A DNA stretch of 64,000 nt from a candidate division WWE3 bacterium (GTDB lineage: Bacteria; Patescibacteriota; WWE3; UBA101185; UBA10185): positions 70,206 through 134,205 of the forward strand of contig JACPGI010000003.1 of NCBI GenBank assembly GCA_016182565.1, in the 5' to 3' direction. A program made the position numbers and the translations under genes. Positions within the stretch are counted from its first letter, which is position 1. Every line of letters starts with the position of its first letter. Positions 41,550-64,000 of the stretch are shown here, piece by piece. Under the pieces are notes generated by a model, which did not search any database, had not been told where the DNA came from, and worked only from the letters and a program-made list of their open reading frames with translations.

Positions 41550-41797
41550 ATTGTCTTTCTTAAATTTATAAATATATTTATACCTATCTATATTAGTTTC
41601 AACTTAAACTTAAGTCAAGGTTGTAGTAGTGGTATGGGAAGCCTCATACAATAAGTGTTAATTTTGTTATTGTTAGAGTTACTGAAATTTCTCTTAATTC
41701 ACAACCTATAGCCCACATAATATAGGTCTTTACATCCTATAATATATTATCTATTGTGCCATTGCGTGCTAGCAGTAATTTTTTTGTAAAAGGACAC

Positions 41798-44700: not shown

Positions 44701-47700
44701 ATTTAATACCGGATCTTATACAGTAAGTGAAACTTCTATAAATGGTTACACCTCAACCTTTTCTGGTGACTGTGATGCACAAGGCCAGGTAAGCTTAAGT
44801 TTAGGTAATGTTAAGACTTGTACTATTACAAATGACGACGTCGAACCACTTCTTACCGTAACCAAGGTTGTTGTTAATGACAACGGTGGGGTTAGTGTTG
44901 TAAGTGACTTTAACCTATATGTAGATTCCACACAGGTATCAAGCGGAGTCCAAAATGGCTTTATTGCTGGTAACCACACAGTAAGCGAGGCAAATAATAC
45001 AGAGTATACTGGTACAATTTCTGGAGATTGCTCAGCTGATGGTTCTATTACACTTGAAGTTGGTGACGTAAAGACCTGTTTAATTACAAATGACGACCGA
45101 ATTGCCAATTTGACAGTTAAAAAAGTTGTAATAAACGATAATGGTGGGGATAAAGAACCATCTGACTTTTCATTTAGTGTAAATGATGGACCTTCAGTAG
45201 CTTTTGAAGCTGATGGTGAGAATGTCTTAGCAGTAAATGCAGGCACATACAGCGTAGTTGAAGAAAATGCTCAAGGCTACACCACAACTTACGATAATTG
45301 CTCAAACATAGTTTTACCAAACGGTGGAAGTGCAATTTGTACAGTAACTAATGACGATCAACCTGGTACTTTAATTGTTAAAAAAGTTGTCGTAAACGAT
45401 AACGGGGGAAACAACGAAGTAACCGACTTTTCATTTACTGTTAACAGTGGTGATGCGATTGCATTTGAAGCTGACGGTCAAAATGATATAACAGTAGATG
45501 CTTCTATATATTCAGTAGAAGAAGTAGCCACAGCTGGCTACGATGCAACCTATGATAATTGTATAAGAGTTTCTATTCCAAACGGTGGAAGTGCAACTTG
45601 TACAATTACAAACAATGATATTGCTCCATCACTTACTCTTACCAAAGAAGTTATAAATGACAACAACGGTACTGCTACAGCCAATGACTTTGGATTATCC
45701 ATTGGTGGAGTCTCTGTAACTTCCGGACAAAAATTAACCCTTAACGCAAACGAGGCTTACGCTCTAAACGAAGTAGGTCTTTATGGTTACACATTTAAAG
45801 AAATAACAGGGGATGCAAAATGCCCTGCTGTACTTGGCGGAGAAATAACACTTGCTGAGGGTGATGACCTAACTTGTACCATAGTAAACGACGACGTTGC
45901 TGCAAAACTTACAGTCACAAAGATTGTAGAGGGTGGCACAAATCAGGTTTCTGACTTCCCATTATTTGTAGATGCTACATCTGTAACAAGTGGTGAAACA
46001 AATGAATTTAATCAAGGTTCATACACTGTAAGTGAAACCAACCAAACTGGTTACACTGGAGTTATTTCAGGTGATTGTGATGCTAATGGTTCAATTACTC
46101 TAAACGTTGGGGATACAAAAGCTTGTACCATAACAAACACAAGAGATACCGGTACCATTAAAGTTACAAAAATTGTTGATTCCTACCTGAATGATAGTTC
46201 CACTTGGGATATCACAATCTCTGGTCCTACAAACAATTATGATACCTTAGCTAATGGAGAATCTACTTCCGCTTTTGTATCTGACACTGGTAGCTATACA
46301 ATTTCTGAAACAGCTCACACCGGTACAAACGGCGGTGACTATACAAGTACATACGAATGTAAAGATGGTGAAAATACCTTGGAGCTTGGAAATGGTATTG
46401 GTACAGAAATTACAGGATTAAATCTTGAGAAGAACCAAGATGTGGAATGTACCTTCACAAACTCTGTCAAAAGAGGATCTATAACTATAGTCAAAGATGC
46501 ACAGCCAGATTCAGAAGAGGACTTTAGATTCACTGCAAAGATTCCAAATCTCGATGATCTTGATTTCTATTTGGATGATGATGGCGATAACACAAATGAT
46601 TTATCCAATACAGAAGTGCTTTCCGATCTTTTGCCGGGCACCTATAACATTACAGAACCTCATATCCAATATTGGACACTTGAATCTGTAACTTGTGAGG
46701 GCGGATCTGATGCAAATGCTAACGAAAGAAATGCAGTTATCAAACTTCAACCAGGCGAAAACGTTACATGTACTTTTGTTAACACAATAAATAGAGGTAG
46801 TGTTACCGTAACAAAGTACCTTGATGAAAACGCAAATGGTACAAGAGATGAAGGTGAAGTTACACTTCCAGATTGGTTAATAAACCTTTCACACAAAGGT
46901 TCTGTTGATACATTGGTTACAAACTCTGATGGCCAAGTAACTTTCGAGAATTTGTTACCAAAAACCTATACATTAAGTGAGGATCTTTCTGAAGGTTGGT
47001 ATCAGTCCAATATCTCTTGTACAGGGGATACAGGAATTGATACTTCAAATGAGCACCAAGTGATAGTTAATCCAGAAGACCAAATTTCATGCGAAATAGG
47101 AAATTACCAAAATAGCGAAATAAAAGTTGTAAAAAGAATACTTAACCCACAAGGTGAGGAAGTCACTGATCTTACAACTGAATTCTTATTTGAACTAGCA
47201 GGTGTATTAGATGCTGATGAATTGACCGAAAATTTAGTAAGTGAGAATCTTGGTGATGATGAGTCTTTCACAACAAGTGTAAAACCAGGCACTTACCAAG
47301 TAACCGAAGTAGCTGATGCTAACTATGACTTTAAAGGTTGTAGTGCATTATATGAGGAAACAAGTGTTGGTGAATCAATTACAAATGGAAAAGTTGTAAC
47401 AGTTGGAAGTGGTGACAGAATTGTTATTACTTGCGACAACTGGCAAAAACCTTCAACAATAACAGGATCCAAGTGGGAAGATAAAGATCAAAGTTCCCAA
47501 AGAGATGAAAATGAACCACTTCTTCCAGATTGGACAATTTACATTGATACAAATGGAAATAGCAGCTTTGATGATGGTGAAGTTTCTACTAAGACAGACG
47601 AAAATGGAAACTATACATTTAATCTAAATCCAGGAACTTACAAGATTTGTGAAGTAATCCCATCTGAATGGATTCAAACTTACCCAGACTTTAATGACAA

Positions 47701-49459
47701 TCTAGACGATTTCCGTGAAGGGTCCCAAATTACCCAGAATAACTGTTATATATTAACTGTAGGCCCAAATGAGACCATAGGTGATAATACTTTTGGTAAC
47801 TTCCATGAACTCCCATCTCTTCTTATAAGCAAATTCAATAACAAGGGCGGCATTGACTTAAGGGTTGGTGACGAGGTCACTTACACAATAGAAGTTACAT
47901 CAAACGACTCAACTGCATATGGTGTTAAAGCAATAGACCTTTTGCCAAAGGGAATTAAGTATAAAGCCTCAAGTTACACTGCAAACTCCAGTGTTCGAGG
48001 TGATATCTCAGGTTTGGGTGAGCCTACCTACAATTCACCTGGTACATGGACACTGGGAGATTTAATAGCAGGTGAAATTGTTACCCTAACATATGTCGGA
48101 TTTGTTGAAGCTGGAACCGATGAAGGAACTTACAAAGATTTAGCATGGGCAGTTGCCTCTGAACAGGGTGTACTAGCATTAGCTGAAGAAGACGGGAATA
48201 AACTTGCCACAAACTTTGTAGGAACTGAGGTACAGGTTGTTAAGGATCCAGTAGTAGAGGATCTTAAAGTTGATGTTGGCGAGGATGAGAAGATAAAAGA
48301 AATTGGTGAGGTACTTGGTGCCTCCACATCACTTCCAGCAACAGGTTCCCCGACAAGCTTATTTGCTGCACTCTTGATCTGGTTAGTTTTAGGTTTAGGA
48401 GCACTTATGGTTACAAGAAAAAAATCAGTTAAATTACCAAATCCAAAAGTTTTATCGTTACTAAATATTTTTGCGGGCATTATAGTAGCATCATTTATAT
48501 TTACTCCAAGTGCTTCTGCTACTGCACCCAATAATTTATTTGTTAGATTAGAGGAGCCAAAAGCAACAACAAATGTAGACTTTAATCTATCTTTTGTTGC
48601 ACTCGATAGTGATAACAACAAAATAGAAGTTCAATGCTTCAAAAAAGGCCCATCTGATGGTGTCTCTTATGTTGCATTTGGTGCTCCGATCATCTTAAAT
48701 AATGGTGGGGATACTGGGATTTGTGAAGCTAAATCTACAAATATCCTTACAAATGACGGTAGTTACTGGTTTAAAGTATCTGCAAAAACATTGACTGAAA
48801 ATCCACTAGATTCTGTGACTTCGGAGTCTGAGGAATGGAAAGTTGACTATGATGGGAATGGCCCAGGAAAACCATTTGATATCGAAAAAGATAAAGATGG
48901 TAATTGTCAGTTTGAGCTCTCATTTAAGACTGCAAATGATGGTGAAACCTCATACGTAGAAATATATAGGGATGATGACAGAGAATTTACAGCTGATGCA
49001 ACTAAACTACATAAAACAATAAGTATTGGACCAAATACGTCTTATAAGTATGAGGATGATCTTTACGGCAGCGAGTGCGGTAAAAACTTCTACTATGGCG
49101 TAAGAGCTTTTGATGCAAACGGCTATGGTTCAGCTCTTGGACAAGAGGAGGATACTGAAACTACAAAAGAAGTAACTATAACCACCACTGAGACAAAAGA
49201 GGAAACAGGCGCAGTTCTTGGAGGCGGTTCTTCTATTGAGGTGGGTGGTGAAGAAAATGCAGATAGTGAAGTTGTATTACCAGGAGACGTTTTAGGTGAA
49301 TCCGATAAAGGTAATGCCACTGAAGATAACGAGTCGATAAATGGAGGTGTGTTGGGAAGTGCTATTTCTAAGCTTAAAAACCCTAAAGTTATTGGCCTTC
49401 TTATTGCGGCTTTGTTACTGTTAGCATATGGCTATTACAGAGCTAAAAAATCCAAGTAA
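41798..49459 (+). CDS. Giant (about 2,550 aa) surface protein with tandem beta-sandwich repeats, Cna-B/SdrD-B-like and DUF11 domains, an internal LPATG sorting signal and a C-terminal membrane-anchored FN3-like region
   Basis: It has a signal peptide MYYKNKTKRLIASVALL. About seven near-identical 85-90 aa repeats follow (LTVTKVVVNDNGG...CTITNDD). Cna-B-type motifs are present (LPDWTIYIDTNGN...GEVSTKTDENGNYTF). A DUF11-like domain is present (GDEVTYTIEVTSN). LPATG is followed by a hydrophobic stretch and RKK at nt 48332-48420. The ORF then continues in frame for 350 aa and ends with a TM segment plus RAKKSK. Confidence 0.8.
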   Translation: MYYKNKTKRLIASVALLSQMVYTVNPFVYAYISYSINSKALAQEVTDIASDTVVSQETINSQNTLNTESDAETSSNFESSIPTNEPIVEEFLSSNLMDVDTEVVDQGSEGDVLPVVTGVTIPEVTPQVEANQTEEIIVAEPSSGIEVQETKPEVQIPNTIESSTETTDDSPETNAVVESSFSSGEILDSGSTSVRTTSEPSDFIDAKEQVNGMECLDTEASIITSTTDMWEVDSATNTAKTKGDVQTGIRYEFPLNKDVAVTFTCLPKDTQELSSLKIQQVKVSELNLPKGTTTSVEYAYDITSDMPNGSFEYEVVLPKPILTTTELIYIEKSIDDATNEDLVKSDLKKVSSVQIEQTKNLLTASELNHFTIFLIVDGTNIPDFSNDWLDFYDTLGNLVTDVEDGKLGMNDESNGGTNVTPAEIDIGSAVDISGTNSGNQSSLQYYYEDNNTGGTCSDDTLFLRMRLEGNPEASGNSGSAYSSYHWDFLLDANNNGTSDFVIDVFGGKTNSFDSSEGGQSGSIGLYPNDANSTSYTTDNVLWTARADDGSNLYTQVEKDDYGDAIASNDQFWMEAAVPLNVNAAFQAAVCNLTDLDGLVFASTSTSNTDPLQKDWMNPVGFFTSHVEHKSVENLTNAGATTVLDPAAAGDIIEYTLSVTNDGTREIPGFIFSDDISDILAYATLVNGDTDGNGKTGTVVSNTISWPQQDIAVGQTLTEQFSVQINSASLWNGTDFTMTNVYGDTVNVYLQSYGYVTVNKIVIAHGASKVAADFGPFKVGDTTVTLGETTAFPVGTYTISETTDANYIASFSNDCPNGEVTVTVNSTAACTITNERIVINPKITLIKEVINDNGGTATSNDFGLSIGGTSVTSGQTVEVTAGTPVALNEVGLTGYSFVSMTGANCPSNLGDSVTLAEGDDITCTITNDDVAPLLTVTKVVVNDNGGTKQVSDFPLFVDTTQVTSGVQNGFNTGSYTVSETSINGYTSTFSGDCDAQGQVSLSLGNVKTCTITNDDVEPLLTVTKVVVNDNGGVSVVSDFNLYVDSTQVSSGVQNGFIAGNHTVSEANNTEYTGTISGDCSADGSITLEVGDVKTCLITNDDRIANLTVKKVVINDNGGDKEPSDFSFSVNDGPSVAFEADGENVLAVNAGTYSVVEENAQGYTTTYDNCSNIVLPNGGSAICTVTNDDQPGTLIVKKVVVNDNGGNNEVTDFSFTVNSGDAIAFEADGQNDITVDASIYSVEEVATAGYDATYDNCIRVSIPNGGSATCTITNNDIAPSLTLTKEVINDNNGTATANDFGLSIGGVSVTSGQKLTLNANEAYALNEVGLYGYTFKEITGDAKCPAVLGGEITLAEGDDLTCTIVNDDVAAKLTVTKIVEGGTNQVSDFPLFVDATSVTSGETNEFNQGSYTVSETNQTGYTGVISGDCDANGSITLNVGDTKACTITNTRDTGTIKVTKIVDSYLNDSSTWDITISGPTNNYDTLANGESTSAFVSDTGSYTISETAHTGTNGGDYTSTYECKDGENTLELGNGIGTEITGLNLEKNQDVECTFTNSVKRGSITIVKDAQPDSEEDFRFTAKIPNLDDLDFYLDDDGDNTNDLSNTEVLSDLLPGTYNITEPHIQYWTLESVTCEGGSDANANERNAVIKLQPGENVTCTFVNTINRGSVTVTKYLDENANGTRDEGEVTLPDWLINLSHKGSVDTLVTNSDGQVTFENLLPKTYTLSEDLSEGWYQSNISCTGDTGIDTSNEHQVIVNPEDQISCEIGNYQNSEIKVVKRILNPQGEEVTDLTTEFLFELAGVLDADELTENLVSENLGDDESFTTSVKPGTYQVTEVADANYDFKGCSALYEETSVGESITNGKVVTVGSGDRIVITCDNWQKPSTITGSKWEDKDQSSQRDENEPLLPDWTIYIDTNGNSSFDDGEVSTKTDENGNYTFNLNPGTYKICEVIPSEWIQTYPDFNDNLDDFREGSQITQNNCYILTVGPNETIGDNTFGNFHELPSLLISKFNNKGGIDLRVGDEVTYTIEVTSNDSTAYGVKAIDLLPKGIKYKASSYTANSSVRGDISGLGEPTYNSPGTWTLGDLIAGEIVTLTYVGFVEAGTDEGTYKDLAWAVASEQGVLALAEEDGNKLATNFVGTEVQVVKDPVVEDLKVDVGEDEKIKEIGEVLGASTSLPATGSPTSLFAALLIWLVLGLGALMVTRKKSVKLPNPKVLSLLNIFAGIIVASFIFTPSASATAPNNLFVRLEEPKATTNVDFNLSFVALDSDNNKIEVQCFKKGPSDGVSYVAFGAPIILNNGGDTGICEAKSTNILTNDGSYWFKVSAKTLTENPLDSVTSESEEWKVDYDGNGPGKPFDIEKDKDGNCQFELSFKTANDGETSYVEIYRDDDREFTADATKLHKTISIGPNTSYKYEDDLYGSECGKNFYYGVRAFDANGYGSALGQEEDTETTKEVTITTTETKEETGAVLGGGSSIEVGGEENADSEVVLPGDVLGESDKGNATEDNESINGGVLGSAISKLKNPKVIGLLIAALLLLAYGYYRAKKSK
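44320..46140 (+). repeat. Tandem coding repeats (about seven units, 255-270 nt period) inside the giant surface protein gene
   Basis: Repeated peptide blocks start with (L/K)LTVTKVV(V/I)NDNGG and end with C(T/L)ITNDD. Adjacent units are highly similar. Confidence 0.7.
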
Positions 49460-50144
49460 GTTAACCCCTTTTACAAATAAGCCAGCCCTCTTTTGGGTTG
49501 GCTTATTTTTGGTTCTTGTATCTTTGTTAGGTATATCTTTAATATTTGCTCCAATTATAAAAAACGAAATTAAGTACATGAGTATGCAGCGAGATGCAAT
49601 AAAGAATGATGGAAATAATGGAGCAACCTCAGGAGGATCTAACTTACCCAATTTATCAAAAAAACCCATTGTCGCTGTGGATGAAAACTTCAGTATAGTT
49701 ATTCCAAAAATTGGGGCTAACTCAAAAGTTATTGAGGAAGTTGATTACAGAATTTCCAGCGAGTATCAAAAGGCATTATCCCAAGGGGTTGCACATGCTA
49801 AAGATACACCAAGTCCAAAAACAGCATCCATGGCTGGCGAAGGAAATACTTTTCTCTTTGCCCATTCATCTGACAGCTTTTTTACAGCAAATCAGTATAA
49901 TTCGGTGTTTTACCTTTTGACAAAGCTTAAAACCAATGATTATTTCTATATAGCTTTTGATAAGAAACTTTATAAATACGAGATTATCGAAAAAAAGATT
50001 GTTTCGGCTAGTGAGATTAAGTATTTATCAAAAATTGATGAAATAGATGGTAAAAAGGTTGGTGTCACCGCAACTTTAATGACATGTTGGCCCGCTGGAA
50101 CTACATATAAAAGGCTTGTTGTTGTAGGAAAACTTGTAAACTAG
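49428..50144 (+). CDS. Sortase (class A/E-like transpeptidase)
   Basis: An N-terminal TM anchor is followed by His in FLFAHSSD, the catalytic TLMTCWP (TLxTC) and Arg in YKRLVVVG. The gene overlaps the end of the LPATG protein gene. Confidence 0.75.
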   Translation: MAITELKNPSKLTPFTNKPALFWVGLFLVLVSLLGISLIFAPIIKNEIKYMSMQRDAIKNDGNNGATSGGSNLPNLSKKPIVAVDENFSIVIPKIGANSKVIEEVDYRISSEYQKALSQGVAHAKDTPSPKTASMAGEGNTFLFAHSSDSFFTANQYNSVFYLLTKLKTNDYFYIAFDKKLYKYEIIEKKIVSASEIKYLSKIDEIDGKKVGVTATLMTCWPAGTTYKRLVVVGKLVN

Positions 50145-52620: not shown

Positions 52621-53664
52621 TTAAAAGTTAAGGATTGGTGGGATTATTCCAGCTCCAGATAAAGCTCCAATAAGGTTTAGTAATGCAAAAAATATTACAA
52701 TAAAGCCTGCTGATTTAAAAAATATGCCTTTGTTTGTATGGGTTGAATATTTGTTTGACACAAAACTTATCATAGCAAGTACAGGAAGGGTTCCCAAGGA
52801 AAAGGCGAACATAGTAATGGCCCCATCTGTGAAGTTACCCTTAGTAAGTGCAAAAAGTTGCATAGATTGAGTGAATCCGCACGGTAAAAAGAATGTTCCT
52901 ACCCCAAGTATAGCTGGTAGAAGGATTAATTTTTGGTTTTGAGTGTAGCGATGGGGTGTTTTGTTAAAGGATAACAAATATTTTCCAAAAAATTTTGGCA
53001 TTTTAATTTGGAACTTATTTATAAGTGTGGGAATTTCGAGTAAATTTAGTCCAATTCCAACCATAACAAAAAATAAGAGTAAATTTAATATTACCGAGAT
53101 AGTAGAAGTTAAGATAAAAGCTGACCCTAATATACCAATCACACCACCCAGTAGGAAAAATCCAAGTAGTCTTGAAATATGAAAGATAAAAAGTGGTAGT
53201 GTTTGTGTGTTTTTTGCATATGAGGAAGATATGGAAAGTACTAGTCCTCCAACCACTGCCATACAAGTGGATAGTGACGCTAATACCCCTATTCCAAATA
53301 TCGCGGGCAGTGTAACTTCTTCAAAACCAAATAGTTTTACAATTCCAAGTTTTTGCAAAGCTATAAAGCCTCCAAAAACTAAAATTGCAATAAGAAGTGC
53401 TTGAAAAATTTCTCCCGAGTTATTATTTTGGTCTTTTTCTGATTTTGTTTTTGTTATCTTGTAACCGGCATATTCTACTAATTTAGATAAATCATGGGGA
53501 TTAAGTTCTTTTGAACTTTCTATATAAACTTTTGCTTCACCTAAATTTGCCCTAACCGATAAGACGTTTGGTGCGTCTTTAAGCTCACTTTCAATTAGAA
53601 GTTCGCATGCATTGCAGTGCATTCCATCTACAAAATATTCATTTTTTATTATTTTCTTTGTCAT
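52621..53664 (-). CDS. HMA-domain-fused polytopic membrane protein (DsbD/CcdA-like TM domain) of the copper cluster
   Basis: An N-terminal heavy-metal-associated motif GMHCNAC is followed by 6-8 TM segments, with Cys in the TM regions (LSTCMAV, LPCGFTQ). Confidence 0.45.
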   Translation of the reverse strand: MTKKIIKNEYFVDGMHCNACELLIESELKDAPNVLSVRANLGEAKVYIESSKELNPHDLSKLVEYAGYKITKTKSEKDQNNNSGEIFQALLIAILVFGGFIALQKLGIVKLFGFEEVTLPAIFGIGVLASLSTCMAVVGGLVLSISSSYAKNTQTLPLFIFHISRLLGFFLLGGVIGILGSAFILTSTISVILNLLLFFVMVGIGLNLLEIPTLINKFQIKMPKFFGKYLLSFNKTPHRYTQNQKLILLPAILGVGTFFLPCGFTQSMQLFALTKGNFTDGAITMFAFSLGTLPVLAMISFVSNKYSTHTNKGIFFKSAGFIVIFFALLNLIGALSGAGIIPPILNF

Positions 53665-53670
53665 ATTACT

Positions 53671-55992
53671 TTAAATTTTTGCAAGCTTTAATCTTAATGA
53701 GTTAGAGATAACCGAAACGCTGCTAAATGCCATTGCAAGTCCTGCAAACATAGGATTTAACATAACTCCCCAAATTGGATATAAAAGTCCTGCTGCAAGT
53801 GGTATACCTACTACATTGTAAAAGAATGCCCAAAAAAGATTTTGTTTAATTGTCTTCATGGTTTGTTTTGAAAGTTTTATAGCTTTTATTACTTTGGAGA
53901 AATCTCCACGTAATAAAGTGATAGATGCAGCCTCAATTGCGACATCAGTCCCAGTAGCCATAGCCATACCAATATCGGCTTGCGCTAGGGCAGGTGAGTC
54001 ATTTATCCCATCACCTATCATAGCCACTATCTCACCCATGTTTTGAAGCTCTATTATTTTTGCCACTTTTTCATGTGGTAAAACACCTGCAATTACTAAG
54101 TCTATACTTGCTTGCTTTGCAATATAGTTTGCTGTGTTTTCATTGTCACCGGTTAACATGATTACTTTTATCCCCATTTTGTGTGCCTTTTGTATGGTTT
54201 CTTTGATCCCATCTTTTAGTGTGTCTGAAATTGCAAAAATTCCAAGTATAAATTTATCCTCCCCCTGTAGCTCCCCAAGTATTACTGGAGTTTTGCCCTC
54301 AAGTGTCAGGTTCTTTATTTTACTAAGTTCTTCTTTTTGCAGATAATTTTCAAATAATCTTTGGCTTCCGACCTGATACCTTTTATTTTCTAGAACTCCA
54401 ACAATTCCCTTACCCTCAATAATTTCAAAATTAGTCGCAGTTAAAAGGTTTATATTTAACGCTTTTGCTCTTTCAACGATTGCTTGAGCGAGAGGATGTT
54501 CTGAGTTTTTTTCAAGGGATGCAGCAAGTTGAATTAGTTTTTTCTCGTCTAAGGAAAAGCTTTTCCCATCTTTTGGTGCTTCTACCATAAATATATCAAC
54601 AAGTTCTGGTGTTCCTTTTGTTATAGTGCCTGTTTTATCTGTGACAATTGTTGTTACTTTGTGGAGTTTTTCAAGGCTATCTGCATCTTTAATAAGTATT
54701 CCATTCTGGGCGCCTTTTCCTGTGCCAACAATTATGGCAGTAGGTGTAGCAAGGCCTAAGGCACAGGGACATGCAATAACAAGAATTCCTGTAAACGAAA
54801 TAAGTCCATATGATAGAGCTTGGCTAAAGCCTAGTGTTTTAGTCCCGATTACAAGCCAGCATCCTAAGGATAAGAATGCGATAACAAGTACTGTTGGAAC
54901 AAAAACTTCAGATATTTGATCAGCAAGTTTTTGGATTGGGGCTTTTGTTCCTTGTGCATCCTCCACCATTTTTATAATATGTGCCAGCAGGGTTTCTTGG
55001 CCAATTTTTGTTGCTTCTACTCGTAAAACACCCTGTTTATTTACTGTTCCTCCTACTACAAGGTCTCCTATTTTTTTATCAACTGGGATGGATTCTCCTG
55101 TTATCATAGATTCGTCAACTGAAGAGTATCCATCAACAACTTTACCATCTACTGGTATTTTCCCGCCTGGTTTTATAACAATAATATCTCCGATTACGAC
55201 TTCCTCAAGTTTGATTTCAATTTCCTCTTTTATTTTTGTTTCATTATTTATTCTTTCGACTATGGCAACTTTTGCTTGTAGATTAATTAATTTTTCGATG
55301 GCTTCCCCTGTTTTATGCTTTGATTTAAGTTCTAAATACTTTCCAAAAGTTATAAAGCCAATAACAACTATTGCTACATCAAAATATGTACTGGAGCTTT
55401 GACCCAAGAAGTTTTTAATTGCTGGTGAAGATGTAATTAAGGTGCTGTATATAAAAGCAGTGCCTGTTCCTATACCTATTAATGTGTCCATATTTGCGAC
55501 TTGAAATCTTATAAAATTCCATACCCCCATTAAAAAAGGTTTTCCAATCCCGATAAGTGTAGCTGTTGCTAAAACAAAGAAAACATAATTCATAGTCTTT
55601 TCATCAATTATTTCCATTACCAATTCTTTAGCAAAGATCTGTCCCATCATGACAGCAAAAACCCCCACTGTTATAGGTAGGGAAAACAATACTTTTTTCC
55701 ACATATTTTCTAAATCTATCTCTTGTGAGTTTTTATCATCTTGGTTCGAAAGATTTTTTGCCCCTTCAACTAATTTGTAGCCAAAAGTTTCGATTTTACT
55801 GTTTAACTCGTCAAGCGAAATCTTCTTGGAATCAAAAACTATTTTTGCCTTTTCATTTGCATAATTTACTTCTACGTTTTCCACTCCCACCTCTTTTTTT
55901 AATATTTTTTGAATCACAAGAGCACAGCTTGCACAATGCATTCCCTGGACTTTTAATTGTTCTGTAGTTAGGGGTGTAGAGTTTTCTATCAT
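53671..55992 (-). CDS. copA: Copper-translocating P1B-type ATPase
   Basis: It has N-terminal [11 protein letters not shown], the TM metal site CPCALG, the phosphorylation site DKTGTIT and the hinge [10 protein letters not shown]. Confidence 0.9.
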
Positions 55993-56279
55993 TATCTGTG
56001 CTTTTTTGTTAAATTAACAACTTCAAGTACCTCTTGTATTAGTTTTTCTTTTGTATTTTCATTTTGGGTTGTCATGCCGTCTTTAAAACATGTTCTCATA
56101 TGATTTTTTAGCATTTTATCAGATGCTGATTTAAGTAAACCACTTACCGATGCGATTTGAGTCACAATGTCAATGCAATATACGTCCTTGTCAATCATGG
56201 TTAGAACATTGTTTATGTGAGTTCTTGCTTTCTTTAATGCAATCGATGCTTGTTTTTTTGGATCGTCAATTTTTCTCAT
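55992..56279 (-). CDS. csoR: CsoR/RcnR-family metal-sensing repressor
   Basis: 95 aa with [12 protein letters not shown]...HMRTCF (Cys-His-Cys ligand pattern). Its stop overlaps the copA start. Confidence 0.65.
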
Positions 56280-56716
56280 ATAAATTTAATTGAAAAGTTA
56301 TACATACCCATAGAACATGTTCCCCTTAAAATACTTCCTGCTTCCTGTGGGGGGATCTCGATGTCAGTTGTGCCGGTGGGTGGTAAATTACGAAGTACCC
56401 TTAAACTTGGTATCGTTAGCGAGGTGCTGCAATCAAATGTACCCATTGTTGTAACTCGAAGAATTGAGGGTGTATTCGCTTTGGCAATGCTTTTAGTCGG
56501 TGAATATCCAACTTTTGCTGTTAATTTAACAATTTGCTTTCCATCCTCTATCTCTGTAGTAAGCCTTTCGTTTTTAGTTGAAGTATCATCAGCAATCAAA
56601 CTGGAATTTGTGTTGGTTAAGTTGATAAGAAATGCCAAGCCTGCGATAAGAAGAAGTGTAAATACCATATTTACAATCTTTGTTTGTGAATTTTGGCTTG
56701 TAGGATTCATCGGCAT
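56276..56716 (-). CDS. Secreted hypothetical protein with a C-terminal Cys/Met-rich motif (copper-operon leader gene)
   Basis: It has a signal/TM segment and a C-terminal RGTCSMGMYNF. It overlaps the csoR start. Confidence 0.3.
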   Translation of the reverse strand: MPMNPTSQNSQTKIVNMVFTLLLIAGLAFLINLTNTNSSLIADDTSTKNERLTTEIEDGKQIVKLTAKVGYSPTKSIAKANTPSILRVTTMGTFDCSTSLTIPSLRVLRNLPPTGTTDIEIPPQEAGSILRGTCSMGMYNFSIKFI

Positions 56717-57580: not shown

Positions 57581-58383
57581 ATGGGTGGAATTCTCAAAGG
57601 CTTTCCGGAGGGAACGTAATTAGATTTAATAAGTTCTTATTTACAAAACGTGCATCCATGCAGCTTCCTAAGCCTCTTAATAAAACTGACCTAGCCGAGA
57701 TAGAACGTATTTGTAGAAAGAACAGAGCTTTATATCTAAAAATAACCCCAAATAATACTCAGGACTTAGATTTATTGATTAACTCAGGTTATAAAAAAAC
57801 AAATAAAATAGAAATCGCCCCAAATACCATGCTTCTTGATCTAACTTCGCAACTTGAGGATATCAAGAAAAAATTTACAGGTAATTGTAGATACTCTATA
57901 CACAACGCGGAAAAAGATGGATGTTATACCACAATTATAAAAAATCCAGACAAAAAAGATGTTGAAGTATTTTATAAAATTATGCAGGAACGAAGTAGAA
58001 AAAAGCATTTTTTCATATTTGGTATCACTGACTTGTTGGCTAAAATCAGCTCGTTTGGCGACCAATCTTTTGTATGCTTTGTTTATAACATTAACAATGA
58101 GTTACTTGGTGCAAAGATGTTTTTAGGTTTCAAAGAAACTATTTATGGAATTCATAGTGGGACTACTGAAGCTGGTCAAAAAACAAATGGCGGCTACAAG
58201 CTTCTTATGGACTCTATAGTTTATTTTAAAGAACTTGGTTTTGAAACTATGGATTTAGGAAGCGTTGAGGATAAAAGGCTAAAGGGTCTAACACACACTT
58301 GGAAAAATTATTCTCATTATAAATATGAGTTTAATGGTCAAATTGTTTATTATAACTTTCCGTATATAAGGTGGTTTTGGTAG
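57526..58383 (+). CDS. FemAB/GNAT-fold (Acetyltransf_6-like) acyltransferase, tentative
   Basis: 285 aa with weak resemblance to FemX-like aminoacyltransferases. The genome also encodes sortase substrates. Confidence 0.3.
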   Translation: MDYNDIRQSDNWSQYLQTYGWNSQRLSGGNVIRFNKFLFTKRASMQLPKPLNKTDLAEIERICRKNRALYLKITPNNTQDLDLLINSGYKKTNKIEIAPNTMLLDLTSQLEDIKKKFTGNCRYSIHNAEKDGCYTTIIKNPDKKDVEVFYKIMQERSRKKHFFIFGITDLLAKISSFGDQSFVCFVYNINNELLGAKMFLGFKETIYGIHSGTTEAGQKTNGGYKLLMDSIVYFKELGFETMDLGSVEDKRLKGLTHTWKNYSHYKYEFNGQIVYYNFPYIRWFW

Positions 58384-58395
58384 GGGAGGGGTGTG

Positions 58396-58674
58396 CTATT
58401 CTCCACAAAACATCATCGTACATGCAACTTGACCGTTTTCACAGCTACAGCTGTTGCAACCATCGTCCGACCTAAACCCTTCTCCAGGTTTATAAGTTTT
58501 ACCATTGTATTCACATGATTTTGGAAATAGGTTTATATTGATTGGATTAAGCGGATTCCCTAAATTATTTGGATTTTCAATATTCTGACTAGTTCTAAGA
58601 CTCGCACCAATAAGTACCCCAAATAAAAGGAAGAAAACAAGGGCAAGAATAAATATTGGTTTACTTATCATCAT
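58396..58674 (-). CDS. Small secreted six-Cys protein (protease-inhibitor-like Cys spacing)
   Basis: A signal/TM segment is followed by C-x18-C-N-x-C-x-C-x2-G-x3-C-T-x3-C. Confidence 0.4.
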   Translation of the reverse strand: MMISKPIFILALVFFLLFGVLIGASLRTSQNIENPNNLGNPLNPININLFPKSCEYNGKTYKPGEGFRSDDGCNSCSCENGQVACTMMFCGE

Positions 58675-58776
58675 ACCTTTGTATTTTACTCCGGATCTCT
58701 ACATAGTTCAATTTTACTTAATGCTTTGAAATATGCAGATAGGTGGTGGGTTTTGGTATTAAGTAGACCTATAATT

Positions 58777-59877
58777 TTAGAACCACCTTGAGACTAACTT
58801 TTGAGCGGCAGATGTGTAAGTGTATTGTTCGAGAAAGTCTTTTTGGGTTGGGGGTGCATTCTTTGATTTTATTAGTTTTATTATTTCGGAAATTTGTACA
58901 GCCAAACTCTTAGGGTCTTTCGTTTTTAGAAAATAGACATTTTCAAGATTTGTAAAAAGCTCTTCAGTAGTAGGGTACTTCAAACATATTATCGGTAAAC
59001 CTGCATTTAAAGCTTCAATATAAGTAAATCCCAAAGTTTCCATATCTGAGAGTGATATAAAAACATCATAGTTTGCATACTCCATAAGAAGTTCCCCTCT
59101 TGGCAAAAAATCACGTATTTTTATTCTATTTTCTAAGTGGCAGTTTTTTATTATCCTAGCAACTTCCCCCATGGATCTTCCACTGCCGATTATAGTAAGA
59201 GTCCAATTATTTGTGGGTATACGGGCGAGTGTCTTTACAAGTAGGTCTACATTTTTCCCTTTAACAACTCTTCCCGTATATAAAAGATTTAAAACGAGTT
59301 TATTTTTAAGAGTGACCTTAGTTTTTATATTTGTTTTATTTAGAATTGGGTATGGGTATATTTGTGTTTTAGTTTTCTTAATGCCAAGTTTTGTGTTTAG
59401 GAATATGGCTGCGGTTTTAGATGGTACAGCAAAATAATCTACGAATTTGAAACATAGACGTAGATAAAGTATCACAAACATTTCTAATATTTTATTAATT
59501 GACGCAAACTTAGTTTCATGATTTTTAAAATAGTATGTATGAAAATATGCAAGCGTGTGTATTTTAAATATTTTTCCGCAAATCAAACCAATCCAATAAG
59601 TAGAAAAACTTTCATTTAGTATTATTAATTTTGGTTGGTGCAACTTAATAAAACCCACTGCATGTATGAGGTCAAAGGTGAGAATTGGAAGAATAAGTGG
59701 TCTTAAAAAACAGCATTGTAGCTTATACTTTGCGAGTTCTTCTTTTGCATAAGGTGTTTTGATAGTGAATAAGACAGGTTCTAGACCCAATTTTTTAAGC
59801 CCAATTGCATAATTTATAGCAGCAAATTGGCTTCCGCCCCCATTTTTACAAATAGTTTCAGTGAAAATAGCAATCAT
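58777..59877 (-). CDS. GT4 family glycosyltransferase
   Basis: The C-terminal METLGFTYIEALNAGLPIIC matches the GT4 E-x7-E region. Confidence 0.7.
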   Translation of the reverse strand: MIAIFTETICKNGGGSQFAAINYAIGLKKLGLEPVLFTIKTPYAKEELAKYKLQCCFLRPLILPILTFDLIHAVGFIKLHQPKLIILNESFSTYWIGLICGKIFKIHTLAYFHTYYFKNHETKFASINKILEMFVILYLRLCFKFVDYFAVPSKTAAIFLNTKLGIKKTKTQIYPYPILNKTNIKTKVTLKNKLVLNLLYTGRVVKGKNVDLLVKTLARIPTNNWTLTIIGSGRSMGEVARIIKNCHLENRIKIRDFLPRGELLMEYANYDVFISLSDMETLGFTYIEALNAGLPIICLKYPTTEELFTNLENVYFLKTKDPKSLAVQISEIIKLIKSKNAPPTQKDFLEQYTYTSAAQKLVSRWF

Positions 59878-59983
59878 CTTTCAATACTAACATGCGGTGT
59901 AATGTGACCTGTGGTCTCTTTTGGTGCCTGTTTTGTATTGTCTATAATCTGACTAAAAGATGGTTTATTAGTCAACTACTATT

Positions 59984-60388
59984 CTAAGTTAAGTCTGTAA
60001 ATGGGTTGTAAGCTATTTCCCAGTAATATCCGTCTGGATCAGCAAAGTACGCTGAATATCCTCCCCAAAACACTTCTTGTGGGTGTTTTATTGGTGTGGC
60101 ACCATGAGATACCGCTAAATCAAAAACCTCGTCTACCATTTGTTTCGATGAAACATTATGAGCTAATGTTATACCACTAAAACCACTTCCATCTGGCGAT
60201 ATAGTGATATCCTCAGCAAGTTTTTCTTTAGGAAAAAGAGACAGCCATGTCCCATCAAGTTCAAAAAGTACATATTCTTTTCCATCTTCATAATTGTGTG
60301 GTATGAATCCAAGACCGTTTTTATAAAAATCCAAGGACTTTTTGAAATTACTCACACCAAGGGTAATAATGCTTATTTTTGGTTTCAT
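59984..60388 (-). CDS. VOC (glyoxalase/bleomycin-resistance fold) family protein
   Basis: MKPKISIITLGVSNFKKSLDFYKNGLGF is a VOC beta-alpha-beta start. The start was moved to the internal Met. Confidence 0.55.
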   Translation of the reverse strand: MKPKISIITLGVSNFKKSLDFYKNGLGFIPHNYEDGKEYVLFELDGTWLSLFPKEKLAEDITISPDGSGFSGITLAHNVSSKQMVDEVFDLAVSHGATPIKHPQEVFWGGYSAYFADPDGYYWEIAYNPFTDLT

Positions 60389-60562
60389 GAAATAATAATA
60401 ACATTGCTGGATGTTACCGTACGCTATTTGAACATTTTTTATCAAGGAGTAACATTAATATATGCGTATATATCACGTAATTAATACTATAGTACTCGTT
60501 GGTCTTTTTTTAGTACATTTACACTTTTTTCACAGCTTAGTAGATTAATTACTAAGTCAGAT

Positions 60563-60922
60563 ATGATTCGGAAATCTCAATTAGAGGTTTTAGAGAAAGT
60601 TAAGTCCCAAACTTCAAATAGTGGTGATAGAGAATACGATGAAACAGAAGTTTCCAGGGGTATTATAAAAAAAGAAATAATCCCTAAGGAATTAGAGTTG
60701 GGAGATTACTGGTACTGGATATATTTTGATGAGCCGTATTTATTGAAAGATAATGCTTCCGGATTCCCCAGGTATGTAAGTAAAATTCAAGTTAGTCCTT
60801 CCCAAAATATAGCTAAAGATTTCGATGAAATGGTAAATATACCTGTTGAAATATTTAGCAGGAAGAGTTGGGGATATGCCGAAAGTAATTTATTTGAAAT
60901 TCTAGCTATCACAAAGCTGTAG
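60563..60922 (+). CDS. Hypothetical protein
   Basis: 119 aa ORF; no motif. Confidence 0.25.
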   Translation: MIRKSQLEVLEKVKSQTSNSGDREYDETEVSRGIIKKEIIPKELELGDYWYWIYFDEPYLLKDNASGFPRYVSKIQVSPSQNIAKDFDEMVNIPVEIFSRKSWGYAESNLFEILAITKL

Positions 60923-60989
60923 TTTTTTCATAGTTGAGATCAGTAAATATGTATTTGCAGAGCGGAATATGGAAAACCAGCCAGTACAA

Positions 60990-61847
60990 CTATAATTTAC
61001 GCTTTAGAAAATCAACAATAAGCTTCGCAAGTTTGCTTTCAGAACCTCCAAAACAGTGATCACTATCATTAAACAAGTGTATTTCTGTGTTCTTATTTTC
61101 TGATCTTAATAATTCAACAGCATCTGTTGTAGGAATAACTGTATATTCTTCACCATCGCTTATAGCACCAAAGATTGGTACGTTTATATTCTGATATGAA
61201 ACCAGACCTTTACCTTGCCTGATTGGAAACGCTTTTGATATCTCAGAATTATCTGAAAAGAAATTAACATAGGATTCAGCGCTTTGGGGTAGTATTCCTG
61301 CATGTGAGAGCCAAATAGAAGTTAGATATTGGTACCCCTTACCTTGTTTTATTAGCTCAATGGCTTCATCCATTGGGTTTATCGTTTGTGATTTCAAGAA
61401 TTTGTAGTGTGTACCATAGGAATCTGCAAAGCCTAGCAATAAGACAGCTTTTACTGTATCTACAAGCTTTCCTTTATTCATATAGTAAACTACCTTTTCT
61501 GTACCAAGACTATGTCCACATAAGATTATATTGCTATAACCTTTATTTTGTAGGAATTCTATCCAAGTATCTATATCAATCACACAATCCTCAAACTTTT
61601 CCACTGATGCCCCTGTTGGTTGCCACGAAGATCCTTGGTCGGCTCCCCTATTATTAACAAGCAATGATGTAATACCTGTTTCTATCAGTTCTCCAGAAAC
61701 TACCTGCATAAAATCTTCACAATAAAAATTACTTGCAGTTCCATGTATAAAGAGCATTGCTGTATCAGACTTTTTACCGCCTTCTAGCAACAAGCCATAA
61801 AGTATAATATTATCTGGTGTTTTTGCTTGTACGATTGGGTTATTCAT
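60990..61847 (-). CDS. Alpha/beta hydrolase
   Basis: It carries the nucleophile elbow GHSLG and a C-terminal His region (DSDHCF). Confidence 0.65.
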   Translation of the reverse strand: MNNPIVQAKTPDNIILYGLLLEGGKKSDTAMLFIHGTASNFYCEDFMQVVSGELIETGITSLLVNNRGADQGSSWQPTGASVEKFEDCVIDIDTWIEFLQNKGYSNIILCGHSLGTEKVVYYMNKGKLVDTVKAVLLLGFADSYGTHYKFLKSQTINPMDEAIELIKQGKGYQYLTSIWLSHAGILPQSAESYVNFFSDNSEISKAFPIRQGKGLVSYQNINVPIFGAISDGEEYTVIPTTDAVELLRSENKNTEIHLFNDSDHCFGGSESKLAKLIVDFLKRKL

Positions 61848-61960
61848 AATTTAATTATACCTTACATAAAAGTTATTGAGGTATAACCACTGAATGACAA
61901 GTACATTTTGCATGTTGGTATGTTTTGCCACTGCACGTTCTATTTGACTGAGCATGTAGT

Positions 61961-62533
61961 TCAGGAACCCAACTCGCTGTCTATAGACATCTTTAGTTTC
62001 TCTAGCAATGAGGGGTACAATTCTTTACCTTTTGTAGTTCGCATTCTGTTTGGAAATTTCTCTTTCCAAAGCTCGTACATTTTTATCCACTCCTCTCTTA
62101 GGAACTTCTCTTTTAAATGGTTAATATCTAACTTACTTAAGTTATCCGCGTCAACTATTATGGCTTCGGTTTCGGTATTAGATTTATGTGCATCTGCAGC
62201 ATCTACTAAATCTAATATAATGGTTATTTCACTTTTGGTGTATTTTAAAGATGTTAGAAGATCTATTATGAATGGTTTAGAGTTTTGGTTTGCCTTTTCC
62301 TCAAATTCTAATAATTTATCAAAAGAAAGTTTTTGTGAAGGAAGAACATCTCTCCAGCCAATATCGTGAATATACGCCGCGATTACTAATAGGTTGATAT
62401 CGTTTCTTCCATTTCCAAGTTCTTTTACCCATTTGACTACGCGTTGCGCATGATTCCAATCGCCATCTCTGCATCTTAGCAAATGAGGTTCAACCAGAGC
62501 CTTGAATAACTCTTCATTAAAAGGAGTCTTCAT
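61961..62533 (-). CDS. HD-domain phosphohydrolase
   Basis: It carries H...HD motifs (HAQRVV ... YIHDIGW). Confidence 0.65.
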   Translation of the reverse strand: MKTPFNEELFKALVEPHLLRCRDGDWNHAQRVVKWVKELGNGRNDINLLVIAAYIHDIGWRDVLPSQKLSFDKLLEFEEKANQNSKPFIIDLLTSLKYTKSEITIILDLVDAADAHKSNTETEAIIVDADNLSKLDINHLKEKFLREEWIKMYELWKEKFPNRMRTTKGKELYPSLLEKLKMSIDSELGS

Positions 62534-62623
62534 ATATTTATTATACCAACGGTTAATATTTTATTTGCATTAAAATTAAAACACGGTTCGGATCTACGCT
62601 TTTGAAAGCGGATATTTACTAGC

Positions 62624-62676
62624 CTTGAAAGACTGTTTGAGGCTTCGTGGTCATCTAAGTGCCCATTCTGGCTGAC
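62624..62676. repeat. Conserved 53 nt intergenic element, copy 1 (CTTGAAAGACTGTTTGAGGCTTCGTGGTCATCTAAGTGCCCATTCTGGCTGAC)
   Basis: About 85% identical to a second copy at 63753-63805 in the same orientation. It is followed by the 5 bp stem GCCCA/TGGGC. Confidence 0.5.
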
Positions 62677-62743
62677 TATTGGGCTTCAAGTTCGAACTAT
62701 AATTAACGCAGAATTGAAAATTGCTACTTATACAAAATATGTG

Positions 62744-63643
62744 CTAACTAAGTGATACTTCTTTTGGTCCCTCAATTGTATAACTTATCACTTTATCACA
62801 CTCACTTAACAACTTATTATCATCAAATAAACTTTGAAATTCGAGTAAACTACTATCTTCATTGGCGGTAACTTGTGCGATTTTATTCAACTTTTCCAGT
62901 TCTTCTGGAGCATAATCCTCTGTTTTGAAATATTTCCTATCAAAGAAAGACATATAATCCCAAGGTAATAGTTCTATTTTATTAAGTGCTAACAGGTCTC
63001 TATAGACATTTGATGAAACAAACCAAGATCCGAATTTATTGATACCGGGGACTCCATATAAATCAGGGTCGTCTTTTTTCGAAGTACATAATTGCCAAGC
63101 CTTTCCCGCTACATAAAAATCTTCTCTTGATATGTTGTCACTTGTTAATCTGATATTGTAGTACTTTTTTTGGAGCTCGCCTAAATTCGCGTCAACTAAT
63201 TTCCATGTGCTAGTCGAGTTATCCCAATATTCGCAAACCCAATGGTCTACTTTATATTTATCATAAAAATATAGTGCAAAACCACACCTTATCCTTGCTG
63301 GTATGTTTTTGTATCGGAGTATGGAGCAAAGGAGTAATGCGTAATCACGGCAAGTCCCTATAAATCTATTTTTTGGTAATCTTGTTGCTGTTAAAGACGA
63401 ATTGTCTAAAGAACTAAGTGTCTGTAAAATTTTAGATACATACCTAGTATCTGCTTCTAGTTTTCTATTTTTAGGTAGCGTTAAACTGTATTGTGTTTGA
63501 AGTGCGTCTCTGTGGACTATTAGCAGATTTACTATGTTTGTGAGTGACTCAATATCTGAAGGCAATTCTTTGTATAGGTGGCCAAATTCTCCTGGGTCAG
63601 AATATTTGCTTTGTTCTATGTAATAGTTAAATTCACCTATCAT
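62744..63643 (-). CDS. Transglutaminase-like cysteine protease superfamily protein
   Basis: Cys in GTCRDYALLLCSILRYKNIPARIRCGF, His in DHWVCEYWD and a downstream Asp match the transglutaminase-core pattern. Confidence 0.6.
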   Translation of the reverse strand: MIGEFNYYIEQSKYSDPGEFGHLYKELPSDIESLTNIVNLLIVHRDALQTQYSLTLPKNRKLEADTRYVSKILQTLSSLDNSSLTATRLPKNRFIGTCRDYALLLCSILRYKNIPARIRCGFALYFYDKYKVDHWVCEYWDNSTSTWKLVDANLGELQKKYYNIRLTSDNISREDFYVAGKAWQLCTSKKDDPDLYGVPGINKFGSWFVSSNVYRDLLALNKIELLPWDYMSFFDRKYFKTEDYAPEELEKLNKIAQVTANEDSSLLEFQSLFDDNKLLSECDKVISYTIEGPKEVSLS

Positions 63644-63752
63644 ATTTTATATAAGTCTATATTATTATAATAATATTTTACATGTACTGAAGATTAGTCC
63701 AAATACTTTACTCTAAGTTTATCCAACTTTTGTTTAGCTTTATTCTTGCTAG

Positions 63753-63805
63753 ATTGAAAGGCTGTTTGAGGTTTCGCAGTCACTTGCGTGCCCATTCTGG
63801 CTGGC
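63753..63805. repeat. Conserved 53 nt intergenic element, copy 2
   Basis: Direct repeat of 62624-62676. It is immediately followed by copies of the A motif (63812-63826) and B motif (63881-63932). Confidence 0.5.
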
Positions 63806-64000
63806 AGTACTGTACGCTATTTGAACTTTATTTAGACTCTAAAAAGATAATTTAGCAATTATTGTATTTGCAGTTTCTTCGGGTGTTTGTTTAGTGTTGT
63901 CTATAATCTGTCCAAAAGAGGGCTTATTAGTTCCAGGTTTGTAGTGATATCTTATTCGCTCTTGTTCTTTACTGCTCAATTCTCTGTTACCTCTATTAGT

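Follow-up and report, generated by a model that had tools for sequence, protein, structure and literature searches.

Genomic islands at transfer RNA genes (tDNAs) are bounded by the tDNA and its displaced fragment, and the Islander definition calls for an intact tDNA, a co-oriented 3′ fragment, an internal tyrosine integrase and a length of 2–200 kb, elements of <2 kb being rejected (PMC4383910). Cis-mobilizable elements (CIMEs) carry attL/attR-type sites without genes for integration or transfer, and can accrete in tandem by entering the target or a resident attR (Pavlovic 2004, Bellanger 2011, reviewed in PMC5704250); they have been described as decay products of ICEs (integrative and conjugative elements) or IMEs (integrative and mobilizable elements) among Firmicutes, and usually hold several genes (PMC5704250). 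In Dehalococcoides, islands lie in tandem at ssrA, with 20-bp repeats of the ssrA 3′ end and a serine recombinase of ∼540 aa at the island edge, and 15 islands without an integration module have been interpreted as cis-mobilizable (PMC3146451). In the streamlined genomes of Prochlorococcus, nothing but partial tRNAs stands between one integration of a series and the next, and decayed remnants are found (bioRxiv 10.1101/2020.12.28.424599). Here we describe a row of small genes near the end of a 64,000-nt stretch of a candidate division WWE3 genome (contig JACPGI010000003.1, positions 70,206–134,205; hereafter the window). We interpret it, with a probability of about 0.65, as a tRNA-anchored accretion array of integrase-less, CIME-like and mostly single-gene units, formed at a recombination hotspot at the 3′ end of tRNA-Gln(CTG). 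WWE3 belongs to the candidate phyla radiation (CPR), whose genomes are, to our knowledge, tiny and hold few recognisable mobile elements; a literature search returned no CPR-specific account of tRNA-linked islands.

The initial annotation of the window described three families of intergenic repeats, motifs A, B and C, in permuted order around small unrelated genes, and likened the arrangement to integron cassettes. All three pairs are present as direct repeats: motif A at 60415–60441 and 63808–63834 (27 nt, 89% identical, with an exact 15-mer inside), motif B at 59914–59972 and 63873–63931 (59 nt, 81% identical) and motif C at 62625–62674 and 63754–63803 (50 nt, 84% identical). Each motif has two copies in the window. 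When the 64-kb window was searched against dinucleotide-preserving shuffles, the expectation was 0.00 for motif C and 0.05 for motif A, and a 14-mer of motif B, allowing up to two mismatches, gave 4 matches against 1.0 expected, a number reached by 0 of 100 shuffles. The pairs are thus non-random. The division into three families did not survive: A and C belong together in a single unit, and B is a piece of a gene.

A search of public genomes and metagenomes for the conserved skeleton brought up further WWE3 loci; contigs compared with the window carry L numbers. In two of the WWE3 loci, L012 and L014, an intact tRNA-Gln(CTG) ending ...CCCCAGCCA runs uninterrupted into GAATGGGCACGCAAGTGACCACGAAGCCTCAAACAGCCTTTCAAGGCT...TAGATCCGAACC, and the sequence directly after the CAGCCA of the tRNA, GAATGGGCACGCAAG..., is that of motif C. 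Motif C is therefore the last 6–8 nt of tRNA-Gln together with its native 3′ flank, which we call the trailer, and which is 80–95% identical over ∼100 nt across several WWE3 genomes. The same tRNA stands at the homologous locus in L013, L016 and L017 as well. In the window genome it lies beyond the window end, on a Logan contig, L001, that matches the window at 100% identity where the two overlap and reaches beyond its edge. The search for additional motif copies that the initial annotation had proposed turned up A/C-type loci in other WWE3 genomes. In L011 a diverged copy of motif C lies directly after a kinase gene, here called X; in the alignment, conservation reaches well past the 53 nt first ascribed to the motif, and the stretch that lies 5′ of motif C in the other copy is matched by motif A. 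The tract to which motif A belongs is 23–29 nt long, starts with GTTC, ends with CAGCCA and stands in place of the T-arm/acceptor strand of the tRNA. Motifs A and C are thus one unit anchored on tRNA-Gln, A being the tract type that we call beta, and since C is the tRNA end plus trailer, each A/C copy marks an attR-like junction scar between units.

Two further observations concern the tRNA-Gln neighbourhood. The tRNA-Gln T-arm is represented by another fragment, ATTGGTTCGAATCCCTGT..., which at the ‘empty’ sites is found ∼145 nt downstream of the tRNA (L014, ∼1440–1462, minus strand); it is also present in L013 (∼2080–2112, minus strand) and possibly in the window at ∼62545–62555. As an older T-arm scar is present even at ‘empty’ sites, the trailer may itself be the vestige of an ancient insertion at a T-arm sub-site rather than at the CCA end. 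Just upstream of the tRNA in L012 (1499–1744, plus strand) is an 81-aa open reading frame (ORF) made up of nearly nothing other than CxC/CxxC repeats and Asp/Glu; it looks metallothionein-like by eye, and its coding strand is uncertain, long ORFs overlapping it on the opposite strand. Matches on L015 (metagenome) and L019 (viral) were rejected as chance, lying within unrelated coding regions, and scans of viral contigs found neither the trailer pattern nor relatives of the serine recombinase described below.

The gene content at the tRNA-Gln locus differs between close relatives. L012 and L014 are empty sites, and one lineage, GW2011_GWC2_41_23 (L013, L016 and L017), is collinear with L014 save for a one-gene insert of ∼1 kb, whose gene (L013 2271–3197, minus strand) encodes an AadA-like nucleotidyltransferase with NTP_transf_2 and AadA_C domains. 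Its left edge reads ...CAGCCA/TGAAATTT... and its right edge ...GGTTCTAGACCGACATGCT-CAGCCA/GAATGGGC, the slash marking the boundary. This is a presence/absence polymorphism with nucleotide-precise edges at CCA. The comparison of gene content at the junctions, which the initial annotation had called for, thus gives no gene in L012 and L014, one in L013, L016 and L017, and several in the window genome. Both further copies of the motifs and variable gene content between them exist, and the cassette-like part of the annotation stands. It could be argued that no dedicated enzyme is needed, the tRNA-Gln and its trailer acting as homology anchors for RecA-type replacement after DNA uptake, for Campbell-type integration of circles and for illegitimate joins. 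Such a mechanism, which we consider unlikely, leaves unexplained why, with L013 set against L014, the unit boundaries coincide at CAGCCA with only 6 nt of identity.

In several respects the locus resembles the tDNA islands of the Islander type: there is an intact tDNA at one end, with accessory cargo and with co-oriented tracts that may be fragments of the tDNA 3′ end, and the presence/absence polymorphism is precisely bounded at the tDNA end. It differs in that the WWE3 units have no integrase and measure ∼0.6–1.8 kb, that their fragments have only ∼6 exact nt plus GTTC in common with the tRNA, and that part of the trailer is duplicated.

Three types of tract, alpha, beta and gamma, can be told apart. 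All have the same orientation, and each ends in CAGCCA or something close to it (CAGCCA at the first beta and at alpha, CAGTCA at gamma and a degenerate CCAGC at the second beta); beyond GTTC and CAGCCA they match the tRNA poorly. When the alpha+trailer junction is compared with the beta+trailer junction, the arms are identical at 9 of 23 positions (hand count), the core at 6 of 6 and the trailer at 36 of 44, and the 8 mismatches of the 50-nt C repeat all fall in its trailer part. The two beta tracts are identical at 24 of 27 positions, and their right sides, trailer in one case and the leader of the VOC gene in the other, are unrelated. Across genomes, gamma is joined to the trailer (L013), to the X leader (L011), to the hydrolase leader (window) and, twice, to other sequence (L009); alpha is joined to the trailer in both the window and L011; and the tRNA-Gln itself is followed by the trailer, by the X leader or by the leader of the AadA-like gene. 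Left and right arms thus pair combinatorially, and similarity breaks at CAGCCA. Half-sites mixed in this way are the expected trace of site-specific recombination at att-type sites. Where the HD gene ends, the gamma tract (61945–61975) forms a fourth site of this junction class, missed by the initial annotation; its comparison with the L013 tract gave a score of 34 against a null maximum of 29 (p<0.001), and control junctions were non-significant. Homology-driven replacement accounts neither for recurrent GTTC...CAGCCA arm types of similar length, with partners that vary between genomes, nor for the abrupt switch in similarity at the core.

The features of the array and of a second, probable element in the window are listed in Table 1. 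Along the direction of the genes, the order is tRNA-Gln, X, beta-CAGCCA with the first 44 nt of trailer, the transglutaminase-like gene, alpha-CAGCCA with at least 91 nt of trailer, the HD gene, gamma, the hydrolase gene with orf119, beta with a degenerate core, the VOC gene, a relic of X and the GT4 gene. This order accounts for the two arrangements that had been noticed at the outset. Motifs C, A and B are contiguous on the plus strand because beta and trailer follow the 3′ end of X, and the order B-[VOC]-A arises because the second beta junction precedes the VOC gene and the X-allele fragment comes after it. The shorter trailer copy with part of the core (63754–63804, 51 nt) is 94% identical to the tRNA end and trailer of L012 and L014, and the longer copy with the core (62578–62674/62675) is 88–89% identical to L013 and L014. 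Units measure ∼0.6–1.8 kb, and the distance from the tRNA to the X relic is ∼4.5 kb; the GT4 gene may be the distal flank of the array. The earlier gene labels (GT4, VOC/glyoxalase, alpha/beta hydrolase, HD and transglutaminase-like) agree with Pfam. The genes are not all on the minus strand, as had been stated, since orf119 lies on the plus strand, and five of the six array genes are co-oriented. The nearest relative anywhere of the transglutaminase-like gene is 49% identical, so that there was no usable comparator for a second test of a travelling cassette.

Table 1. Features of the tRNA-Gln array and of the probable element at tRNA-Pro. Positions are those of the window unless a contig is named.
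Feature	Position	Strand	Remarks
tRNA-Gln(CTG)	L001 3177–3250 (window-equivalent 64395–64468)	-	∼395 nt past the window end; X follows after 70 nt
Gene X, 3′ part	63839–64000	-	Holds motif B copy 2 (63873–63931), encoding ...TNKPSFGQIIDNTKQTPEET; from translation, L001 overlap, Pfam and homologues
Beta tract and core	63798–63834	-	TAAATAAAGTTCAAATAGCGTACAGTACTGC-CAGCCA; includes motif A copy 2; position of tRNA T-arm/acceptor 3′ strand
Trailer copy, first 44 nt (motif C copy 2)	63754–63797	-	Similarity ends ...CTTTCAA
Transglutaminase-like gene, 299 aa	62744–63643	-	Cargo of second unit; Pfam
Alpha tract and core	62669–62697	-	GTTCGAACTTGAAGCCCAATAGT-CAGCCA; same type after X in L011 (p<0.002)
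Long trailer copy, at least 91 nt	62578–62668	-	Extends to ...GATCCGAACCGTGTTTT; motif C copy 1 is its first part
HD-domain gene, 190 aa	61961–62533	-	Cargo; Pfam
Gamma tract	61945–61975	-	GAGTTGGGTTCCTGAACTACATGCTCAGTCA; overlaps HD stop codon; same type after AadA-like gene (L013), in L009 and in L011
Alpha/beta-hydrolase gene, 285 aa	60990–61847	-	Cargo; Pfam
orf119, 119 aa	60563–60922	+	No Pfam match; shares inter-junction segment with hydrolase; called as gene on L001
Second beta tract with degenerate core	60402–60441	-	TAAAAAATGTTCAAATAGCGTACGGTA, core ACATCCAGC-AATG; motif A copy 1; runs into VOC leader, not trailer
VOC/glyoxalase-family gene, 134 aa	59984–60388	-	Cargo; from ATG at 60388; Pfam
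X-type relic (motif B copy 1)	59899–59973	-	Internal fragment, ∼codons 129–150 (TNKPSFSQIIDNTKQAPKET)
GT4 glycosyltransferase gene	58777–59877	-	First gene past the last recognisable junction or relic
Toprim primase-like gene	19972–22335		Behind serine recombinase
Weak RT-like ORF	17404–18987		Behind serine recombinase
EcoRI-type methylase gene	14438–15604		Behind serine recombinase
GmrSD+HNH gene	13278–14441		Behind serine recombinase
PD-(D/E)XK nuclease gene	12490–13263		Behind serine recombinase

A TATAAT box stands 6–7 nt before the ATG of X (TGTATAAT; L001, upstream of 3321), of the HD gene (TGGTATAAT; 62533) and of the hydrolase gene (GGTATAAT; 61847), none of which was flagged by a generic sigma-70 scan. 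This spacing suggests that the transcripts may be leaderless or nearly so, and that each unit may bring its own promoter.

Motif B had been counted among the intergenic repeats, and both of its copies turn out to be coding in origin. On the minus strand the 63.9-kb copy translates as ...KPGTNKPSFGQIIDNTKQTPEETANTIIAKLSF*, the C-terminus of a gene that runs past the window edge and is complete on L001. This gene, X, encodes a 161-aa P-loop kinase with Pfam matches to CPT, Zeta-toxin and AAA_18, and the sequence NKPSFGxIIDNTxQTPEET is kept in all 84 database homologues. Motif B is thus the conserved C-terminal coding motif of kinase X and is unrelated to the junction sites. At the more distant X loci L002–L007, motifs A and C were not found and B alone matches, within their X genes. 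The 59.9-kb copy is a stranded coding fragment: it encodes LTNKPSFSQIIDNTKQAPKET..., two stop codons precede it, and its tail, which is unrelated to X, ends in a TGA that overlaps the ATG of the GT4 gene. Codon differences inside the B repeat are mostly synonymous. Because the tail is unlike the C-termini of the X family, the relic is an internal fragment of the gene. When one and the same 62-nt stretch is compared, the relic has 90% identity to the L008 and L009 alleles of X and 77% to the resident X, so it is not a local duplication; rather, two X alleles of different ancestry met here. An early idea had the B repeats bounding 3.96 kb of DNA inserted into X at its 3′ end and supplying a replacement gene end, with attL and attR in a protein gene; it was dropped, the relic being internal and derived from a different allele.

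Four contexts show homology over gene X and its leader of ∼70 nt, as far as a ...C(A/G)GCCA-like junction. An arm follows X in 4/4 contexts, and trailer-like DNA follows it in 3/4 (window, L008 and L011; p = 0.001 for the L008 trailer match). X therefore recurs as a discrete unit, with junctions on both sides, in four contexts. This recurrence bears on the possibility that the array is no more than what decay has left of one or several ordinary, larger islands or prophages, integrated at a tRNA and formerly equipped with an integrase, the single-gene units being what deletions spared and the tracts being eroded and inactive tRNA fragments. Integrase-less remnants with scattered partial tRNAs are indeed well documented (bioRxiv 10.1101/2020.12.28.424599; PMC5704250), the arms look degenerate, and the ‘empty’ sites already hold the older T-arm fragment. 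However, units with identical boundaries would not be expected to arise again and again by independent decay, and X is found as the same compact unit of leader, ORF and arm in four neighbourhoods, whilst the AadA-like insert is a clean one-gene unit; we regard decay alone as a rather improbable account. The array resembles the tRNA-seeded islands of Prochlorococcus in that the genomes are small and remnants and partial tRNAs are scattered about a tRNA. Tycheposons differ in carrying a tyrosine recombinase and replication modules, none of which was found in the WWE3 array or in the window; the phylum is also different, and the WWE3 units are far smaller.

The trailer is better conserved than neutral intergenic DNA of AT-rich genomes usually is, which could mean that it is a functional RNA or a regulatory element (a small RNA transcribed along with tRNA-Gln, a signal for processing, a terminator or a promoter) that was duplicated for its usefulness next to genes. 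The initial annotation had likewise offered a small structured RNA or shared promoter/terminator modules, and neither found support. A scan of 58000–64000 with Rfam 15 at E ≤ 10 returned only three chance matches to eukaryotic small nucleolar RNAs and long non-coding RNAs. RNAalifold, applied to five distinct trailer copies of ∼100 nt, gave −8.8 kcal/mol with 11 pairs, 0 of them compensatory, and a covariation term of +0.36. Scanning for promoter and terminator consensus sites gave 19 against 23 expected and 3 against 2.2 expected, and thus no enrichment. With the fold weak, no Rfam match and only the first 44 nt retained in the second trailer copy, a selected RNA or regulatory role is very unlikely to be the cause of the repeats. 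A GC-rich 5-bp hairpin (GCCCA...TGGGC) that had been reported after both C copies is present at the 62.6-kb copy only, and its fold is non-significant (z = −1.3).

The integron comparison can be taken up at this point. Small, mostly co-oriented and functionally unrelated genes between repeats have the superficial look of attC-flanked promoterless cassettes captured by IntI at attI, and one related genome has an aadA-like single-gene insert. AadA genes are classic integron cassette genes. The outcome is also alike, with single-gene units that end in a 3′ recombination site, are stacked at one position and vary between strains. The machinery of an integron is a different matter. Pfam searches covering most window ORFs of at least 100 aa (non-nested), plus gene X, found no integron integrase or other tyrosine recombinase; beyond the window edge, L001 holds a 908-aa gene that has only a precomputed GGDEF label and a partial ORF without a label. 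Single-strand DNA folds of both copies on both strands were no better than shuffles (z = −1.30, −0.87, +0.62 and +0.50), so there are no attC-like imperfect hairpins, and no inverse cores of the GTTRRRY type are visible by eye. The WWE3 array has no attI, its genes appear to have their own −10 boxes, and insertion is at a tRNA 3′ end rather than at an attI beside intI. A true integron is therefore so improbable as to be set aside: of the original proposal, what holds is a cassette-like, strain-variable array with its motifs at recombination junctions, and what falls is the strict integron with its integrase and attC-like fold.

On sequence grounds, then, the array would be neither an integron nor an Islander-type island, having no integrase and units of <2 kb, and the CIME/accretion description would fit it. 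As in CIMEs, no unit encodes a recombinase, and X, the transglutaminase-like gene, the HD gene and the hydrolase gene with orf119 are each followed by a junction tract. The WWE3 units differ from CIMEs in being single genes, in having a CPR host and in having no known parent ICE or IME, and their mobilisation in trans is our inference.

The accretion that we favour might proceed as follows. Small units, mostly of one gene each, would have been inserted successively at or next to the terminal ...CAGCCA of tRNA-Gln, each unit ending in a 23–29-nt tract of alpha, beta or gamma type. A site-specific recombinase acting in trans on the integrase-less units would make the junctions, and new units would enter either at the CCA end of the tRNA or into a resident scar, which is accretion. 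The duplication of trailer positions 1–44 can be accommodated in two ways that are indistinguishable here: the transglutaminase unit, with a trailer-bearing attP, may have entered a resident beta-CAGCCA/trailer scar, or there may have been Campbell-type integration through trailer homology. The model predicts a circle junction beta-CAGCCA/TAAGTTTC for the X unit, a circle junction alpha-CAGCCA/GAATGGG...TCTAGCAAG for the transglutaminase unit, and a junction tRNA-CAGCCA/GAATGGGCAC at an empty site or at one with an alternative neighbour.

Several points weigh against this interpretation. There is no recombinase gene in or adjoining the tRNA-Gln array at any locus examined, so that action in trans has to be assumed. 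As copies of the tRNA the arms are poor, with little beyond GTTC and CAGCCA in common, and in alpha and beta the length exceeds the distance from T-loop to CCA in the tRNA by 5 nt; the exact duplication at the best-resolved insertion is 6 nt only. Simple serial insertion predicts a single distal trailer, whereas the first 44 nt occur twice, and the doubling needs an extra assumption, namely scar integration with a trailer-bearing attP or homologous recombination. Taken one by one, neither the upstream and downstream arms in L008 (p = 0.37 and 0.16) nor the L009 tract initially placed upstream of X (p = 0.21) reach significance, and they are possible junctions. Only ∼5 independent genome contexts were compared. 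Circular intermediates and excision products are not among the observations. Part of this evidence is what the enzyme-free alternative would lead one to expect: a trailer duplication of 44 nt at 82–94% identity is longer than a typical crossover core and fits Campbell-type integration, the locus has no recombinase, and both ends of the X relic lie in unrelated sequence, pointing to illegitimate joins.

The accretion reading leaves room for a candidate enzyme type elsewhere in the window. The sole recombinase found there is a large serine recombinase of 552 aa (22918–24576, plus strand) with the domains Resolvase, Recombinase and Zn_ribbon_recom. The final 12 nt of its gene overlap the CCA end of tRNA-Pro(CGG) (24565–24641, minus strand), and its nearest solved relatives are serine integrases of the SPbeta type. 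With primase-like, methylase, GmrSD and nuclease genes behind the recombinase, this looks like an integrated element in its own right, ∼35 kb away from the array; it probably sits at the tRNA-Pro 3′ end, with genes back to ∼12490. No displaced tRNA-Pro fragment with up to three mismatches in 16 nt was found to mark its far end. Relatives that are 50–51% identical, with phage-like genes adjoining (Terminase_2, DUF5659), overlap the 3′ end of tRNA-Ala(CGC) by 63 nt in L020 (4001–5685) and that of transfer-messenger RNA (tmRNA) by 46 nt in L022 (4001–6008), in each case on the opposite strand. Since the same layout is seen at tRNA-Pro, tRNA-Ala and tmRNA, this CPR clade of large serine recombinases seems to target tRNA and tmRNA 3′ ends, targets that have been stated as not known for serine integrases (PMC4383910). 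The clade is a circumstantial candidate for the type of enzyme acting at the array; it is absent at tRNA-Gln, and no direct link to that tRNA was found.

The ssrA islands of Dehalococcoides combine several of these traits: a streamlined genome, a small-RNA gene as anchor, short direct repeats of its 3′ end, many islands without an integrase, and a recombinase at the edge in the same layout as the 552-aa enzyme at tRNA-Pro. They differ in their tmRNA target, their multi-kb length and their rdhA cargo, and the WWE3 tRNA-Gln array is without a serine recombinase. A bolder proposal, which we put forward tentatively and as improbable on present evidence, is that WWE3 has a system dedicated to cassettes of one gene. 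A cassette would be made up of a short leader with its own promoter, an ORF and a ∼30-nt mimic of the tRNA-Gln 3′ end (GTTC...CAGCCA). Its insertion and excision, at the tRNA-Gln CCA end or at scars, would be the work of a recombinase acting in trans, possibly from the clade of large serine recombinases, and would shuffle genes of detoxification or resistance type among strains. If this were true, the CPT-like kinase, the AadA-like nucleotidyltransferase, the VOC protein and the hydrolases would be shuffled cargo.

Whichever account is preferred, the locus is a concrete site of gene flux in the CPR, with one-gene units that vary between close relatives at a tRNA-Gln 3′ end. The cargo has a resistance- or detoxification-like character, including an AadA-like adenylyltransferase, a kinase like chloramphenicol phosphotransferase and a VOC-family protein. 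If the units are mobilised individually, gene capture of an integron-like kind would have evolved on a different molecular basis; if they are not, this is still a clean case of tDNA accretion and decay in a streamlined genome.

Three other loci in the window deserve mention. A 92-aa predicted secreted protein with a Cys-rich C-terminus (58396–58674, minus strand) has Pacifastin_I and VWC/TIL-like matches; these are animal-type protease-inhibitor or von Willebrand C modules and are unusual in a bacterium. At 41756–50144 (plus strand), a 2567-aa surface protein with multiple SpaA-type prealbumin-fold domains is followed by a sortase gene, an adhesin- or pilin-like locus that is very large for a small CPR genome. 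Finally, a compact cluster at 52621–56716 (minus strand) looks to be devoted to metal, perhaps copper, homeostasis, and encodes an HMA+DsbD_2 membrane protein, a 773-aa HMA P-type ATPase, a 95-aa metal-sensing repressor of the CsoR type and a 146-aa cupredoxin-like protein.

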